This document shows, piece by piece, positions 1-54,024 of a stretch of 56,667 nt of DNA; within the stretch, counting starts at the first letter, position 1, and each line of letters starts with the position of its first letter. The notes under the pieces are model-generated. The model was not told the origin of the DNA. It did no database searches and saw only the letters and a program-made list of their open reading frames with translations. Made by a program: the position numbers and the translations under genes. Source of the stretch: an uncultured Planctomycetales bacterium (GTDB lineage Bacteria; 4484-113); assembly GCA_964554185.1 (NCBI GenBank), contig CAZKNJ010000011.1, forward strand, positions 1 to 56,667, in the 5' to 3' direction.

Positions 1-1539
1 CGTGAAGCCGCTGAACTGGCCCCAGTTGTCCTTGGCGCGGACTTTGTAGATGTAGTCCTCGCCCACAGTAAGGCCCGAGTCGTAGATCTTGCGGCCGGTC
101 GTGTCGGTAGTCCTCAGCAGCGAGAAGTCCACATCAGCCGGCCCCTGCCGCCAGACTTCGTAACCCGCAAGATAGTCCGAGGCGCTCGCCCCCCAGCTCA
201 CTTCAATGGAGTAGCTGTAGGGAATGCCTTCGTTCTCCGTGGCTATCGTGGCTGGCGTCGTCGGCGCCGCCGGGAAGAACGGCGTGTTGGCCGCCTCATT
301 GCTGGGATCGGACTCAGCCTGCGAGGTATTCACCGCAGTCGCGTAGTAGGTGTATTCAATGCCCGGGGGAAGCCAGTCGCCGTTGTTGTTGTCGGTGTAC
401 TGGAGCGGAACCGTCGCCTTCGGAATGGCCGCAACCTGGGTGAACTCGGTTTCGCCCTCGGCCTTCCGGTACAGCCGGTACTCCGCCAGATCAGGCTCGG
501 TGTTGGCGCTCCAGGTCAAGAGAATCCTGCCGGGGCCAATGGCCTCTTTGGCGATCGCTGCGAGGTTCGCCGGCGGATTGGGCACCTCCGGCTGCGCCAC
601 CGTCGCCGGGTCGCTGGGGATGCCCTCGGCGCCACCATTGTCGCCCGGCGCTACCGTCACCTCTTCCGTACCCGCCAACAACACCTCGGTGTACTCGTAC
701 TCCACCCGCGTGCTGCCAGCATCATCCGGCCGCATCACCGATAACGGCTCTCCCGGATTGCCCTCGTTCGGCAGCGGAGTCGCGTTGCCGGCCACATATA
801 CGTTGTAGCCCGCCAGGGAAGTGCCGAAGTGCACCGCTATCGGCGTCACATCCGCGATACCTATCGTCTCGTTGCCGTCCCCGTCCGCCAGGCCTACCGC
901 CGAGTTCTCGTCGGCAACCGCAGAACCAAAGTTCATGGCCAGCGGCGTGATGTCAGCAATCGCCACCGTCCCGTTGTTGTCGTAGTCGCCCACATTGCGC
1001 TCGTGCCACCGCAGAATATACGTCCCCGCCGTGGCAGTCTCAATCAACCGCAAGTCCGTGGGCTTGTTCTCACCTCCGCCGGGCGCAGTACTCACCGCTT
1101 TCGCCGCCGTATCCGCCCCGGCCTCGTACTTCACCCGCAACACCTCTCCACTCCCGCTAACTCCTTCCACCTCGTCAGCATGCACCTTGATTATCCCGCA
1201 CGGCACTTCCCCATGCCGCCCGGTCACCGCAAGGCTGATTACCTCCTCTTCCGCACCCAGGAAACCTCCGAACTTCACCTCCACCGGCCGGTATCCCTCC
1301 GGGTGCTTCAAGGTCACGTATACCGCCTTCAGCCCCTCTGCACCCTCCGCCTTCACAATAACCTCGGGTGCACTCGCGGTTCCCACCACCTCGGCCACCA
1401 GCTTGCCTCCGCCCATCAAATCAACATCCGCAAGCTCGAAGCCTCCAATGCTCAACGGCGCCGGCGCGCTCCGCACGCCACCGCCGCCGCAGGATACCGC
1501 CAGAAGGAGCATAAAGGCCATTAGTATCAGCCTTCTCAT
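1..1539 (-). CDS. Surface lipoprotein, paralog A (cohesin-like + dockerin-like + FN3 domains); 3' end runs off the window
   Basis: ATG at 1539 with AAGGAG RBS. Not in the ORF track (no stop in window). Same frame as the 3988 gene. My translation of 1-300 gives a second, diverged FN3-like domain (IEVSWGASASDYLAGYEVWR...YIYKVRAKDNWG). Confidence 0.9.
   Translation of the reverse strand, partial: MRRLILMAFMLLLAVSCGGGGVRSAPAPLSIGGFELADVDLMGGGKLVAEVVGTASAPEVIVKAEGAEGLKAVYVTLKHPEGYRPVEVKFGGFLGAEEEVISLAVTGRHGEVPCGIIKVHADEVEGVSGSGEVLRVKYEAGADTAAKAVSTAPGGGENKPTDLRLIETATAGTYILRWHERNVGDYDNNGTVAIADITPLAMNFGSAVADENSAVGLADGDGNETIGIADVTPIAVHFGTSLAGYNVYVAGNATPLPNEGNPGEPLSVMRPDDAGSTRVEYEYTEVLLAGTEEVTVAPGDNGGAEGIPSDPATVAQPEVPNPPANLAAIAKEAIGPGRILLTWSANTEPDLAEYRLYRKAEGETEFTQVAAIPKATVPLQYTDNNNGDWLPPGIEYTYYATAVNTSQAESDPSNEAANTPFFPAAPTTPATIATENEGIPYSYSIEVSWGASASDYLAGYEVWRQGPADVDFSLLRTTDTTGRKIYDSGLTVGEDYIYKVRAKDNWGQFSGFT
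555..1539. repeat. Direct repeat copy 1 (near-identical to 3004-3988, offset 2449)
   Basis: Shadow-frame ORF translations of both copies are identical. One synonymous mismatch seen (1501 vs 3950). Similarity continues with scattered mismatches down to about 262/2711. Confidence 0.95.
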
Positions 1540-1649: not shown

Positions 1650-1680
1650 AAAAAAGAAAGGGGCGGCATACGCCGCCCCT
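1650..1680 (-). terminator. Intrinsic terminator after the Sec-lipoprotein gene
   Basis: GGGGCGGC-N4-GCCGCCCC hairpin followed on the minus strand by TTTCTTTTTT. Confidence 0.85.
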
Positions 1681-1702
1681 TATGCAGCCTTTGTTATGCC
1701 GG

Positions 1703-3988
1703 CTAGAGCAGTTCCTCAATGTAGCCGCGCCAAGTGGATTCGTGTGATTGCACGCCGCCGTAGACCTTTCGCACTTTGCCGTCGCGGTCAATCAGGAATG
1801 TTGACGGGCGGCTGAAAGTCCCGAAGGCGGACTCGTACAGCGTTTTCACGGCTGCACCCGTGTAGAAATCCGTGAGGTCGTTGGCGGGGCTATAGCCCTG
1901 CTGGGTAATCTCGGTGACCATAGTGCTGATAGCGGGCTCGTAGGCGCCGATGTAGCAGTAGCCCTGCGACTGGTAAGAATGGTAGATGGGGATTTGCGAA
2001 GGAAACTCCTTCGAGTGCGGGAAAGTTCAGCAGTAGTCATCGAAGCTGAGGGTTATCACGCAGTGGTTATCCAGACACTGCTGGAAGGGGATGTAGGGAG
2101 CGCTCTGCTTTTTGTAGCTGGCCACAGAGAAGCTCGGTGCATACCCCAGGAAGTTGAGCGTGGTTGTACGGACACTCGTTTGGTCGTCATCGCTCGTGAC
2201 ACCGTCGTTGGCCGTCACGGTTATGTCGGCAGCGCCGCAGCCGCCGCCGGAGCACCAAGCGACCGACAGGCCGTGGTTCCCGTACGGGAAGCAGCCGGAA
2301 CTGGCGTTCCAGGTGATGGTGGCCGCCGGGTTGGTGACATCCACGGAGAAATGGGCCTCTTCGTTGGGCCCGAAGGTCGTGCCGTCAACGGTGAGCGTAA
2401 GAATCTGCACATCAACGTAGGGCGAGCAACAGGAGCAGGCATCGTTGCTGTAATCGCTCACCTGGTCGAAAGAGTCTTTGGCGCGCACCTTGTAAGTGTA
2501 GTCAACGCCCTCGGTCAGGCCGCAGTCCTTATACTCCGGGTTGGGGCCCTCGCCGATTGCGCCAATGAGCGTGAAGTCCGCCTCGCCCTCCGCCCGGCAG
2601 TAAACATCGTAGCCGCTCAAGTACTCGCCGGTGGACGCGCTCCAAGTGAGCTTGACGGTCAAGCCGTAAGGCAAGCAGTCATCCGTTGCCTCCAAGTTCG
2701 CCGGCGTTGACGGCGCCGCCGGGAAGAACGGCGTGTTGGCCGCCTCATTGCTGGGGTCGGACTCAGTTTCGGCAGTATTCACCGCAGTCGCGTAGTAGGT
2801 GTATTCAATGCCGAGGGAGAGCCAGTCGCCGTTGTTGCTGTCGGTGTATTCCAGCGGAACCGTCGCCTTCGGAATGGCCGTAACCTGGGTGAACTCGGTT
2901 TCGCCCTCGGCCTTGCGGTACAACCGGTACTCCGCCAGGTCAGGCTCGGTGTTGGCGCTCCAGCTAAGGCGAATCCTGCCGGGACCGATGGCCTGGCTGG
3001 CGTTCGCTGCGAGGTTCGCCGGCGGATTGGGCACCTCCGGCTGCGCCACCGTCGCCGGGTCGCTGGGGATGCCCTCGGCGCCACCATTGTCGCCCGGCGC
3101 TACCGTCACCTCTTCCGTACCCGCCAACAACACCTCGGTGTACTCGTACTCCACCCGCGTGCTGCCAGCATCATCCGGCCGCATCACCGATAACGGCTCT
3201 CCCGGATTGCCCTCGTTCGGCAGCGGAGTCGCGTTGCCGGCCACATATACGTTGTAGCCCGCCAGGGAAGTGCCGAAGTGCACCGCTATCGGCGTCACAT
3301 CCGCGATACCTATCGTCTCGTTGCCGTCCCCGTCCGCCAGGCCTACCGCCGAGTTCTCGTCGGCAACCGCAGAACCAAAGTTCATGGCCAGCGGCGTGAT
3401 GTCAGCAATCGCCACCGTCCCGTTGTTGTCGTAGTCGCCCACATTGCGCTCGTGCCACCGCAGAATATACGTCCCCGCCGTGGCAGTCTCAATCAACCGC
3501 AAGTCCGTGGGCTTGTTCTCACCTCCGCCGGGCGCAGTACTCACCGCTTTCGCCGCCGTATCCGCCCCGGCCTCGTACTTCACCCGCAACACCTCTCCAC
3601 TCCCGCTAACTCCTTCCACCTCGTCAGCATGCACCTTGATTATCCCGCACGGCACTTCCCCATGCCGCCCGGTCACCGCAAGGCTGATTACCTCCTCTTC
3701 CGCACCCAGGAAACCTCCGAACTTCACCTCCACCGGCCGGTATCCCTCCGGGTGCTTCAAGGTCACGTATACCGCCTTCAGCCCCTCTGCACCCTCCGCC
3801 TTCACAATAACCTCGGGTGCACTCGCGGTTCCCACCACCTCGGCCACCAGCTTGCCTCCGCCCATCAAATCAACATCCGCAAGCTCGAAGCCTCCAATGC
3901 TCAACGGCGCCGGCGCGCTCCGCACGCCACCGCCGCCGCAGGATACCGCTAGAAGGAGCATAAAGGCCATTAGTATCAGCCTTCTCAT
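1703..3988 (-). CDS. Surface lipoprotein, paralog B: cohesin-like, dockerin-like, 2x FN3, PKD/Ig-like and C-terminal thioredoxin-fold (TlpA/AhpC-TSA-like) domain with in-frame TGA (probable selenocysteine); 761 aa with readthrough
   Basis: Track ORFs 2027..3988 and 1703..1921 are in the same frame, separated only by the TGA at 2027-2029. Lipobox LLLAVSC. Paired Ca-binding repeats GDYDNNGTVAIADIT / ADGDGNETIGIADVT. Redoxin motifs APSFSV and RPSTFLIDRDGKVR lie on either side of the TGA. Confidence 0.85.
1997..2029 (-). promoter_or_regulatory. In-frame UGA plus candidate bacterial SECIS hairpin
   Basis: UGA-N13-CGAAGGA-GUU-UCCUUCG: a 7-bp stem whose apical loop G is 21 nt after the UGA. Confidence 0.75.
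3004..3988. repeat. Direct repeat copy 2 (near-identical to 555-1539)
   Basis: See copy 1. Confidence 0.95.
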
Positions 3989-4045: not shown

Positions 4046-4073
4046 ATTATAACATCCGTTACAGCAGAATCAA
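4046..4073 (-). promoter_or_regulatory. Sigma70-type promoter for paralog B
   Basis: TTGATT-N16-TATAAT with extended -10 TG. Confidence 0.6.
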
Positions 4074-4096: not shown

Positions 4097-4906
4097 TCAC
4101 AACAGCGCTTCGGTGCGCCGCCGCTGGTTGGCGAGATATATCTGCTCAAAGGCGTCGTCCATCCCAGTCTCGGTAACACGCTCCAGCAAAGCATCGGGTG
4201 AATTGTTGTTCTCGCTGAGATGTCCGAACATCACCTGGCGGGGTGGGTGACGCAGGCTCTGGACAAAGGCGAGAGCCTGCATGTTGCTCAGGTGGCCGGT
4301 GTCGCCGAGTATCCGCCGCTGCAGGAACGCAGGATAGTCGCTTGCACGCACCATGTCCGGCTCGTGGTTCGCTTCCAGCAAGATGAAGTCCGCACCGTCA
4401 CAGAGGCTGGCTTGGTGCTCGTGGGTTGTGCCCAGATCGGTGATGCAGACTATCTTGGTCCCCGCACTCTCGAAGCAGATGCTGACCGTCTCCGGTGCAT
4501 CGTGGCTCACCGGCAGCGGCGAGACATACACGCCGTTAAAGGCGTAACTTTCGCCCGGCCTGAAGGCGAACAGGCGGTGGCCCAGCCCCGAACGGCGGCT
4601 GCCGCGCGCGACCGCATTGAGCACCAGCTCCGGCAGCACAAAGCGCAGATTCGTCAGCCGATACCAAATCGGGAACGCGCTGAAGTGGTCTGAGTGGAGG
4701 TGGGTGACAAACACGGCGTCAATATCGCCGACTTCCACGCCCACGCCGCTCAGCTCGGCGGTGAGATGGCGGTGGGAGATGCCGCAGTCCACGAGAAACC
4801 GTTTCCCGCCAAGCTCAATCAGCGTGCAGTTTCCCTTGCTGCCGCTGGCGAAATTTATGACGCGCGCGCCGATGCGCGAGAGTATAACACAGCGCCTGGT
4901 GGACAC
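4097..4906 (-). CDS. Metallo-beta-lactamase-fold hydrolase (YycJ/WalJ-like); start uncertain
   Basis: ASGSKGN, THLHSDH, SHDA, LEANH and GHLSN motifs. Confidence 0.85.
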   Translation of the reverse strand: MSTRRCVILSRIGARVINFASGSKGNCTLIELGGKRFLVDCGISHRHLTAELSGVGVEVGDIDAVFVTHLHSDHFSAFPIWYRLTNLRFVLPELVLNAVARGSRRSGLGHRLFAFRPGESYAFNGVYVSPLPVSHDAPETVSICFESAGTKIVCITDLGTTHEHQASLCDGADFILLEANHEPDMVRASDYPAFLQRRILGDTGHLSNMQALAFVQSLRHPPRQVMFGHLSENNNSPDALLERVTETGMDDAFEQIYLANQRRRTEALL

Positions 4907-13008: not shown

Positions 13009-13251
13009 ATGTGCCTTGCAGTACCCGGCAGAATCGAATTCATCAACGGCGACCGGGGCACCGTTCGCGTGGGCGGCGTCACGGTAGAGGCCATCCTTGC
13101 ACTGGTGCCGGAAGCTAAGGTGGGAGATTTCGCCGTGGTGCACGCGGGGTATGCTATCCAACTGCTCTCACCCGAAGAGGCCGAGGAGACGCTGGAGCTT
13201 ATGCGTCAAGTGCTGGAGATGGAAGAGGCGCCGACGGAAAGCGATGCCTGA
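13009..13251 (+). CDS. hypC: [NiFe]-hydrogenase maturation chaperone HypC
   Basis: MCLAVPG N-terminus, VHAGYAI. Confidence 0.95.
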   Translation: MCLAVPGRIEFINGDRGTVRVGGVTVEAILALVPEAKVGDFAVVHAGYAIQLLSPEEAEETLELMRQVLEMEEAPTESDA

Positions 13252-14344
13252 GCGAAGTTTACAGCCTGAGGCCGTGCACGCTGCCATGGAGTACATCCGC
13301 AACGCCTCTGCCCGCCCTGCACGCTTTATGGAGGTCTGCGGCACCCACACAGTCGCGGTGTTCCGTTCGGGCTTGCGCAACACGCTGCTAGGGGAGAAGG
13401 GAGTTGAGCTGGTCTCGGGGCCGGGATGCCCCGTGTGCGTGACCTCGGCGAAGGAGATAGACGAGGTGGCGCGGCTGGCGATCGAGTGCAAGGAAAGCGT
13501 GACGGTCACGGCTTACGGCGATATGTTCCGCGCGAAGGGGCACGAGCATTCGCTGGCGGACGCCCGTGCGTTCGGTGCAGATGTGCGGATGGTAACTTCG
13601 CCCTTTGAGAACATCCGGCTTGCGCAGGAGAAGCCGCAGCGCAAGATTGTGTTCTTCGCCATCGGGTTTGAGACCACGCAGCCGGGGCACGCGCATACGC
13701 TCATCGAGGCCAGGCGGCTGGGGCTCCCCAACCTCACTTTTTACGTAAGCCACAAGCTCATCGCGCCAGCCTTGCACTTGCTGGCTGAACATCCTGCTCT
13801 CCGCCTGGACGGGTTCATCCTGCCAGGGCATGTGTCCGCCATTATCGGCGAGGAACCTTACCGCTTTCTGGCAGAGGAATACAGGCTTCCAGGCGTGATC
13901 GCGGGTTTTGAGCCAGGGGACATTGTCGTAGCCATAGCCCGCCTGCTAGCTCAGCGCGCAGCCGGAGAGAGCCGGATTGAAAACGCTTACCGCTCCACGG
14001 TACGCCCCGAAGGCAACCCAAGAGCGCAGGAGCTTATCAGCGAAGTATTTGAAACGGCGGATGCGCACTGGCGCGGCATCGGGCTGATTCCTGCATCGGG
14101 GCACGCACTACGCAGCGGATTCGCGGCTTTTGATGCGCACCAGCGCTTTGGGCTCGAGCGAGTTCTGAATGATGAAGCCGGCTTTGGCGGCTGCCGATGC
14201 GGGGAGGTTCTGCTGGGGCTCATTGCGCCCACGGACTGCGCACCTTTTGGTGAGCAGTGTACGCCCGACAGCCCGCTGGGCCCGTGCATGGTGTCAAGCG
14301 AGGGCGCCTGCGCCAACTATTACCGCTTCGGCGAGCGGCGGTAG
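13244..14344 (+). CDS. hypD: Hydrogenase formation protein HypD
   Basis: MEVCGTHT, GPGCPVCVT, GFETT, PGHVS and the C-terminal Cys cluster GPCMVSSEGAC. Confidence 0.96.
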   Translation: MPERSLQPEAVHAAMEYIRNASARPARFMEVCGTHTVAVFRSGLRNTLLGEKGVELVSGPGCPVCVTSAKEIDEVARLAIECKESVTVTAYGDMFRAKGHEHSLADARAFGADVRMVTSPFENIRLAQEKPQRKIVFFAIGFETTQPGHAHTLIEARRLGLPNLTFYVSHKLIAPALHLLAEHPALRLDGFILPGHVSAIIGEEPYRFLAEEYRLPGVIAGFEPGDIVVAIARLLAQRAAGESRIENAYRSTVRPEGNPRAQELISEVFETADAHWRGIGLIPASGHALRSGFAAFDAHQRFGLERVLNDEAGFGGCRCGEVLLGLIAPTDCAPFGEQCTPDSPLGPCMVSSEGACANYYRFGERR

Positions 14345-53821: not shown

Positions 53822-53894
53822 TGGAGGTGAACGGATTCGAACCGATGACCTTCTGCGTGCAAAGCAGATGCTCTGCCAACTGAGCTACACCCCC
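53822..53894 (-). tRNA. tRNA-Ala(UGC)
   Basis: Cloverleaf with G3:U70 and anticodon loop TT-TGC-AC; CCA not encoded. Confidence 0.96.
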
Positions 53895-53950
53895 GCAGTC
53901 CTATTCTAACACACGCCGTTGAGGGATAAGCCGTGCAGAAAGCGATTAAG

Positions 53951-54024
53951 TGGGTCGTCCAGGACTCGAACCTGGGACCTCATCCTTATCAGGGATGCGC
54001 TCTAACCACCTGAGCTAACGACCC
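53951..54024 (-). tRNA. tRNA-Ile(GAU)
   Basis: Cloverleaf with anticodon arm CATCC-CT-GAT-AA-GGATG; CCA not encoded. Confidence 0.96.

Follow-up and report, generated by a model that had tools for sequence, protein, structure and literature searches.

A candidate lipid-anchored selenoprotein with a terminal thioredoxin-fold domain, divided by an in-frame UGA codon in an uncultured Planctomycetales bacterium

The DNA analysed here (hereafter, the window) was a stretch of 56,667 nucleotides from an uncultured Planctomycetales bacterium. On its minus strand, an open reading frame (ORF) at 3988..2027 encoded a 653-amino acid lipoprotein and was terminated by a TGA codon (2029..2027). Translation of 2200..1703 confirmed an earlier observation of the first-pass annotation, namely that this TGA was in frame with a downstream ORF (1921..1703) and that no other stop codon separated the two. 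Beyond the TGA, the same frame remained open for 107 codons and ended at a TAG (1705..1703); the downstream ORF, which started with ATG and encoded 72 amino acids, fell inside this frame. The joined text read ...CVITLSFDDYC*TFPHSKEFPSQIPIYHSYQSQGYCYIGAY...RPSTFLIDRDGKVRKVYGG...IEELL*, with the C-terminal stretch ...FSRPSTFLIDRDGKVRKVYGGVQSHESTWRGYIEELL*, and comprised 761 amino acids with the UGA counted. In this gene, there was no ATG, GTG, or TTG within 35 codons 3' of the TGA, and no terminator-like site after the TGA. A terminator-like element did follow the TAG, as it also did in the related contig L001. We regarded it as highly probable that 3988..1703 was a single gene of 761 codons whose product is an exported selenoprotein with a lipid anchor. 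The features of the locus are collected in Table 1.

Table 1. Features of the lipoprotein gene and its immediate surroundings (window coordinates)
Feature	Coordinates	Strand	Basis or remark
Promoter-like site TTGATT-16-TATAAT, TG-extended, 5' of the lipoprotein gene	4046..4073	minus	Consensus scan; weak evidence
Predicted lipoprotein signal peptide and lipobox MRRLILMAFMLLLAVS-C-GGGG (Cys17)	3938..3988	minus	Read by eye from the translation
653 codons 5' of the UGA, called by gene callers as a complete 'hypothetical protein'	2030..3988	minus	
Two dockerin-like Ca-loop/helix repeats, DYDNNGTVAIADITPLAMNFG and DGDGNETIGIADVTPIAVHFG, amino acids 185-240	3269..3436	minus	Regular-expression motif match; resemblance only
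FN3 and PKD/Ig-like beta-sandwich stalk, about amino acids 318-607	2168..3037	minus	Pfam; AF2/Foldseek of P0010
TlpA/ResA-like thioredoxin-fold domain split by the UGA, about amino acids 610-761	1706..2161	minus	Family profile; NCBIfam
UGA, putatively read as selenocysteine (residue 654, motif SFDDY-C-U-T-F-P-H)	2027..2029	minus	Same-column TGA/Cys in relatives
SECIS-like hairpin, CGAAGGA (2013..2007)-GUU (2006..2004)-UCCUUCG (2003..1997)	1997..2013	minus	Overlaps the S-K-E-F-P-S codons
107 post-UGA codons, alpha1 to C-terminus of the redoxin fold, with invariant cis-Pro 'RPS' and LIDRDGKVR	1706..2026	minus	
Predicted true stop TAG	1703..1705	minus	Translation
Intrinsic-terminator-like hairpin, 10 bp (8 GC) followed by a T run, 22 nt 3' of the TAG	1658..1681	minus	
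Second tandem paralogue, type B, with 513 codons present before the window end	1..1539	minus	Near-identical full-length copy

Judged from the window alone, the open frame and the hairpin that followed the TGA amounted to no more than what chance would provide, and they acquired significance only through the relatives of the gene. The GC content of the window was 60 %, and about 100 of its stop codons were flanked by at least 60 open codons on each side. Since single-sequence tests were unconvincing on their own, comparative evidence was sought.

A first search with the joined domain alone returned a single relative (P0001 on contig L001) because the fragments located after the UGA were seldom called as genes. 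A search with the full joined 761-amino acid protein revealed a large lipoprotein family of the same architecture. The loci L003-L006 came from scans of metagenome and genome collections, and the DNA of L006-L014 was fetched. A full-length profile search was dominated by giant proteins with FN3 repeats, and its informative matches were single stretches of about 630-816 amino acids. The gene on L001 had the same arrangement (67 % identity, ...VITLSFDDYC-TGA-SPPYMLEFPALV...). Moreover, DNA was read for 16 related genes of the TGA type from other, independent assemblies, and every one of them had TGA at this column. These paralogues and orthologues were 30-85 % identical, their frames stayed open for 103-112 codons past the TGA, and they shared the conserved end ...LIDRDG.VR...W...IEELL. 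In a 17-sequence alignment, conservation started at the very first codon after the TGA (xxC-x-x-E-F-P), and invariant residues were present on both sides of it.

The strength of selection was similar on the two sides of the TGA. Compared with orthologues by the Nei-Gojobori method, the part after the TGA had ratios of nonsynonymous to synonymous substitution (dN/dS) of 0.06-0.35 at a proportion of synonymous differences (pS) of about 0.6-0.7, and the 100 codons before the TGA had ratios of 0.12-0.42. Because dN/dS after the TGA was as low as before it, we concluded that translation continues past the UGA; the same values ruled out a pseudogene or a split gene.

Public gene calls did not reflect this continuity. 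The first-pass annotation had anticipated that standard pipelines would divide the gene, and this was indeed what the databases contained: 'hypothetical proteins' of 652-653 amino acids and, separately, ORFs of 74-106 amino acids. For example, P0002 (653 amino acids) was 99 % identical to the pre-UGA protein of the window, and P0004 was a 652-amino acid hypothetical protein in GenBank (HDL77628.1). Altogether, about 37 public protein clusters, of which the first search contributed about 25 and the second one 12, ended exactly one residue before the UGA column. They were 586-676 amino acids long and had ends such as ...SFDDYC, ...NFGSTG, ...NFGAYW, and ...DRWESG.

Other members of the family had a sense codon in the place of the UGA. 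Namely, full-length homologues carried the first Cys of a CxxC motif at this column, including P0010 (DFGAIG-CQGC-EAEFPSL), P0015 (DMGGYW-CTYC-KRELPFL), P0028 (CLGC), P0030 (CQGC), and P0031 (NFWAYW-CGPC-LAEFPFM). An exhaustive HMMER search added six further Cys homologues (P0079, P0173, P0176, P0179, P0180, and P0203), and CPPC was also among the CxxC forms whose first Cys aligned with the UGA. The alignments identified the UGA column with the first Cys of this motif, as expected for a pair of selenocysteine (Sec) and Cys forms. This was the nucleophile position at which the UGA had originally been placed.

The domain interrupted by the UGA had been described as a redoxin of the TlpA/AhpC-TSA type, and profile searches upheld this assignment. 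A profile built from 17 joined domains matched ResA (4nmu, E = 8.4e-13, the best match) and also DsbE (3gl3), TlpA (1jfu), CcmG, and StoA, with E values from 8e-13 to 1e-6. In the same profile, the U column coincided with the first Cys of CxxC in the ResA, DsbE, and TlpA structures, and an invariant Pro125 of the domain alignment (RPS/IPT) fell on the cis-Pro column, aligned with 'PLPT' of ResA. By itself, the joined domain of the window reached E = 6.5e-5 with the ResA subfamily of NCBIfam and E = 0.02 with ResA structures in a phmmer search of the PDB. The joined domain of a type B relative (see below) passed the thresholds of Pfam AhpC-TSA (PF00578, 51 bits) and Redoxin (PF08534), and so did the Cys homologues. 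Family membership determined by these profiles showed the terminal domain to be a TlpA/ResA-like thioredoxin fold.

Structure was predicted with AlphaFold (AF2) for the Cys homologue P0010, which stood in for the C-U domain of the window. The model had a mean predicted local distance difference test score of 82.9 and showed a chain of beta-sandwiches followed by a terminal alpha/beta thioredoxin-like domain. In this domain, CQGC was found at residue 650 and opened a helix (653-670). Tandem FN3 arrays were the top Foldseek matches of the model in the PDB. The first-pass annotation had seen a stalk made of cohesin, dockerin, and FN3 domains; of these, FN3 was recovered in the window protein by Pfam (fn3, E = 1.1e-8, two stretches; PKD was weak, 0.094), and neither Cohesin (PF00963) nor Dockerin_1 (PF00404) was reported at E <= 1. 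The dockerin-like element consisted of two copies of the pattern D-x-D/N-x-D/N-G-x-V/I-x-I/V-x-D with a helix after each, and the P0010 model had two loop-helix units at the matching place. In the signal peptide region, S15 and C16 (alignment numbering) were almost invariant across 30 family members.

The hairpin located after the UGA, CGAAGGA-GUU-UCCUUCG, had been proposed to be a bacterial selenocysteine insertion sequence (SECIS). Its seven base pairs were confirmed, and so was the position of the loop G as the 21st nucleotide after the UGA. According to the published model of such bacterial elements (bSECIS), a loop of 3-9 nt with a G in one of its first two positions, followed by G or U, is carried on a stem of 4-16 bp, the distance from the UGA to the loop is 16-37 nt, and the minimum free energy is not higher than -7.5 kcal/mol (PMC13188914). 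The window hairpin agreed with the model in every respect since it had the 3-nt loop GUU, a 7-bp stem, 20 nt between the UGA and the loop, and a folding energy of -8.1 to -8.8 kcal/mol.

Moreover, a hairpin of 6-8 bp that began 9-13 nt after the UGA was present in all 16 TGA genes. Its apex was fixed and contained the Glu codon GAG plus UU (GGA-GUU-UCC, GGG-AGUUA-CCC, or GGAG-GUU-CC..); the lower stems varied and included CGAA/UUCG, AUGCU/AGCAU, UUUC/GGAA, GUUCA/UGAAC, GCGGA/UCCGC, and AAAG/CUUU. Covariation was computed on an alignment of 12 sequences, in which 87.5 % of the cells were paired and five of the eight pairs had changed on both sides. There were 24 cells with double changes compared with 7.4 ± 2.3 in shuffled alignments, and none of the 500 shuffles reached 24. 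The covariation score was 0.60, and it did not exceed 0.23 when the 3' partner was shifted by 1-3 columns. In a small control (n = 4), the regular hairpin of the TGA genes was not predicted in Cys-type genes that encoded the same E-[FL]-P motif, and the apex codon was GAA rather than GAG in three of the four. The first proposal was in this respect supported by a published model, covariation, and the absence of the same regular hairpin from the Cys-type genes. An Rfam scan of the window reported only three tRNAs and matched no SECIS model.

The active sites of the family differed in the residues next to the predicted Sec. Most relatives belonged to what we called type B, with U-x-x-C in the forms UGSC, UGYC, UYYC, ULAC, UGGC, UPGC, UTYC, and USGC. 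Type A, the subgroup of the window gene, had a Cys directly before the Sec and lacked a resolving Cys throughout; its members read either DDYC-U-[ST][FP]P[HY]SKEFP, in which one residue is inserted after U, or DKYC-U-GYYAEELP. The initial description of the window site as C-U-T-F-P, with a vicinal Cys-Sec pair and Pro in the place of the resolving Cys, was therefore correct with respect to the pair and the missing Cys, both of which were conserved in the subgroup. The Pro was less certain: due to the one-residue insertion after U, the residue at the resolving-Cys column depended on the alignment, and MAFFT placed His there.

Taken together, these comparisons showed one continuous coding unit with a conserved UGA, a Sec/Cys pair, and a covarying hairpin, and we infer that the UGA specifies Sec rather than another amino acid. 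The 761-amino acid selenoprotein suggested at the outset was thus supported by the TGA conserved in 16 genes, the purifying selection downstream of it, and the Sec/Cys pair. In our model, the protein would begin with a lipoprotein signal peptide and an N-terminal beta-sandwich, continue with the two dockerin-like Ca-loop repeats and an FN3/Ig-like (immunoglobulin-like) stalk, and end in the TlpA/ResA-like domain. The UGA at 2029..2027 would be decoded as selenocysteine with the help of the hairpin at 2013..1997, which starts 13 nt 3' of the UGA, has the apex G-U-U, and may recruit SelB and its Sec-tRNA(Sec) in the manner of a bacterial SECIS. The protein is likely to be exported and lipidated via its MRRLILMAFMLLLAVS-C lipobox. 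The selenol would then stand in for the N-terminal, attacking Cys of CxxC, at the start of helix alpha1, and family membership suggests that the domain is an extracytoplasmic thiol/selenol-disulfide oxidoreductase. Outside the cytoplasm, its selenolate could attack disulfides in substrates, or else other oxidised species. Since type A proteins had no resolving Cys and carried a Cys directly before the Sec, their redox couple was likely to be either a vicinal Cys-Sec selenenylsulfide or a single Sec resolved by an external thiol. The type B tandem neighbours would retain the classical U-x-x-C.

A number of observations weighed against the assignment of a selenoprotein. The genes for the Sec machinery, selA, selB, selC (tRNA-Sec), and selD, were found neither in the 56.7-kb window nor in the flanking DNA, of which about 100 kb was fetched. 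The window hairpin was short, and taken alone it was not significant (fold z = -1.7, matched by 11 of 200 shuffles). Because its apex lay over the codons of the conserved E-F-P, some of its conservation was driven by the protein. The joined domain of the window by itself scored 12.5 bits against both Pfam Redoxin and AhpC-TSA, below their thresholds. Finally, the window gene read C-U-T-F-P-H and lacked the CxxC/UxxC dithiol motif, of which only the first position was kept, as U. Since the domain had no second Cys of CxxC, its chemistry was not that of a standard TlpA.

The absence of sel genes from the window and flanks would also be compatible with programmed read-through or recoding of the UGA, in which a near-cognate or suppressor tRNA would deliver one of the standard amino acids (Trp, Cys, Arg, or Gly) and the hairpin would act as a stimulator. 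The gene was clearly translated in full, and the identity of the inserted residue lies beyond what the sequence alone can tell. However, the alignment of UGA with a redox-active Cys is the standard signature of Sec, and the distance and the loop G-U of the hairpin fit the SelB-type bSECIS model. In addition, Trp or Gly would inactivate the nucleophile site, yet the partner Cys of UxxC was kept in type B. UGA was also a normal stop in this window: TGA was the commonest ordinary stop codon in the window and ended 17 of its 41 ordinary genes, which argued that the genetic code was standard and UGA was not reassigned. We considered such read-through improbable.

Still less probable, in our opinion, was that the TGA is a true stop, so that the product is a 653-amino acid stalk lipoprotein and the 107 codons either are left over and decaying or encode a small protein translated on its own. 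This would match the annotation made by gene callers, and long open frames after stop codons are common at 60 % GC. On the other hand, termination at this point would cut the thioredoxin fold between beta1 and alpha1, the downstream frame was under purifying selection like that upstream (dN/dS 0.06-0.35), it had no start for 35 codons while conservation began at its first codon, and the pattern recurred in 16 related genes at 30-85 % identity. A sequencing or assembly error (with TGC or TGG as the true codon) or a code with reassigned UGA deserved hardly any weight because, even if near-identical repeats such as the 5' 900 nt of the tandem paralogues, which differed at one position, can disturb assembly, the same-column TGA was found in independent assemblies from JGI, ENA, Logan, and NCBI and TGA was the commonest ordinary stop in the window.

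Two known kinds of redox proteins were tried as assignments and rejected. The Sec form of peroxiredoxin (PxxxTxxU/C) did not apply since the residues before U were L-S-F-D-D-Y-C, with Thr missing from position -3 and Pro from position -7. The NCBIfam model NF041054, a 'ResA-like WAxxUGC motif-containing protein' (WAxxUGC_long), left the window sequence unmatched; a type B relative scored 16.6 bits against its cut-off of 300, and the motif was absent. No NCBIfam model named this lipoprotein family.

The lipoprotein gene of the window had a tandem neighbour that was truncated by the window end. It had 5 mismatches to P0005 over 513 amino acids, and a near-identical full-length copy of it on L011 read ...INFGSTG-TGA-TYCKNELSF, with a hairpin of its own and a UxxC site. 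The first 900 nt of the two window paralogues (3988..3089 and 1539..640, minus strand) were identical at 899 of 900 positions, after which the identity dropped to 139/150, 108/150, and 66/150. This pattern points to recent gene conversion between the paralogues or to an assembly effect of the repeat. Another peculiarity of the arrays was seen in L006, where a stray frame at about 13.2-13.4 kb, past the second paralogue, read ...LGISLHPLIDRDGNVRKSS...WLSDIQALL* and had no lipoprotein body. It was probably a C-terminal remnant of a third redoxin domain, left by a decayed paralogue.

Cys-type and Sec-type copies were found at equivalent positions of the syntenic arrays (L013 3001..5316, L010 7374..9677, and L012 3001..5268), and L013 (GCA_900175145.1, FWWM01000084.1) represented a genome with a single copy, of the Cys type only. 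Evidently, Sec and Cys have been interconverted repeatedly within this lipoprotein family.

The 3' end of the window gene showed a further similarity to L001. The last ~58 nt of the gene (window 1703..1785 versus L001 3510..3593) were near-identical (57/58 nt), and the terminator was very similar too, unlike the rest of the two sequences, where synonymous sites were near saturation. A recombination tract or an additional constraint on the RNA would be possible explanations of this shared end.

The neighbourhood of the lipoprotein genes was syntenic across lineages and comprised, in this order, PurN, SIR2, two unknown genes, a metallo-beta-lactamase (MBL)-fold hydrolase, 1-4 tandem lipoprotein paralogues, and FtsK. 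The MBL-fold hydrolase (Lactamase_B_2, with a weak Anti-Pycsar Apyc1-like match) was located directly upstream of the lipoprotein array at 4097..4906 (minus strand), and it was in the equivalent place in L001, L007, L008, L010, L012, and L013. No CcdA or DsbD partner reductases were found among the 41 ORFs of the window or in the flanks of the locus. Elsewhere in the window, tRNA-Ile(GAT) and tRNA-Ala(TGC) were adjacent (53822..54024, minus strand), similar to the spacer of an rRNA operon, and no 16S or 23S rRNA was detected by Rfam anywhere in the window. A HypD hydrogenase-maturation gene (13097..14344, plus strand; Pfam E = 1.5e-132) overlapped the 3' end of an oppositely oriented DeoC-like ORF by 65 nt. 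The presence of HypD suggests a hydrogenase-bearing organism, probably an anaerobe.

Since public annotation cuts the window protein and about 37 relative clusters at the predicted catalytic residue, leaving the remainder as orphan ORFs of 74-106 amino acids, a family of envelope redox proteins from uncultured bacteria of the Planctomycetes-Verrucomicrobia-Chlamydiae (PVC) group (Lentisphaerota or Planctomycetales in the database records) has stayed invisible as selenoproteins. Some genomes had 2-4 Sec paralogues side by side, which would mean that they commit a substantial amount of selenium to redox reactions outside the cytoplasm. Whether the CxxC of a thioredoxin fold can be replaced by a vicinal Cys-Sec pair is a question for which the C-U subgroup provides a natural test case. 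Furthermore, the family provides a clean set of covarying SECIS candidates together with matched Cys-type controls, which may be used for training selenoprotein predictors. The results should therefore interest specialists in selenoproteins and envelope redox processes, and they have practical value for genome annotation. A more far-reaching idea, about which we were rather doubtful, was that type A might represent a new catalytic class, in which CxxC has been swapped for a vicinal Cys-Sec pair, a selenenylsulfide like that of thioredoxin reductase, at the far end of a long extracytoplasmic lipoprotein stalk, as part of an envelope selenium redox relay with the adjacent UxxC paralogues.

Sec-containing proteins of the AhpC-TSA, Redoxin, and TlpA folds with a UxxC site have long been established (PMC2398784; PMC5029168; PMC13188914). 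The proteins described here would resemble them in the fold family (AhpC-TSA, Redoxin, TlpA-like), in Sec at the place of the N-terminal Cys of CxxC, in the existence of Cys homologues, and in a SECIS hairpin that lies inside the ORF shortly after the UGA. This description applies directly to the type B paralogues (UGSC, UGYC, UPGC, UTYC, etc.). Unlike in the known Sec redoxins, the redoxin here formed the C-terminal domain of lipoproteins about 590-780 amino acids long, with a long FN3/Ig stalk, the genes formed tandem arrays of 2-4 paralogues, and the predicted site of the window gene was C-U with no resolving Cys.

The best structural-sequence matches were ResA, TlpA, DsbE (CcmG), and StoA (PDB 4nmu, 1st9, 3gl3, 1jfu, and 2b1k; E = 8e-13 to 1e-6). 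The family shared with them the active-site helix F-x-x-x-W-C-x-x-C-x-x-E-[FML]-P, the cis-Pro loop, and the LIDRDG strand, as well as anchoring outside the cytoplasm, which for the window protein was predicted from a lipobox read by eye. However, these proteins have Cys-x-x-Cys, are about 140-220 amino acids long, and are attached through one transmembrane or lipid anchor without any stalk, whereas the window protein would have Sec, lacked the second Cys, and had a one-residue insertion after the Sec.

A vicinal Cys-Sec pair is also present in mammalian thioredoxin reductase, whose C-terminal GCUG forms an eight-membered selenenylsulfide ring. Among bacterial selenoproteins, 'CU' occurs in HgcA, SaoC, and SaoB (CUxxT) (PMC13188914). 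With all of these, the window protein shared an adjacent Cys-Sec pair conserved in a redox context, in our case predicted from sequence. In thioredoxin reductase, HgcA, SaoC, and SaoB, the pair is part of a flexible tail at the C-terminus or of folds unrelated to this one, whereas here it would occupy the CxxC site within a thioredoxin fold. Thus, Sec-containing TlpA-like redoxins are an already known kind of protein, and what differed from the Sec families compared here, with an earlier description elsewhere being possible, was the stalked multi-domain lipoprotein, the tandem Sec paralogues, and the C-U site.

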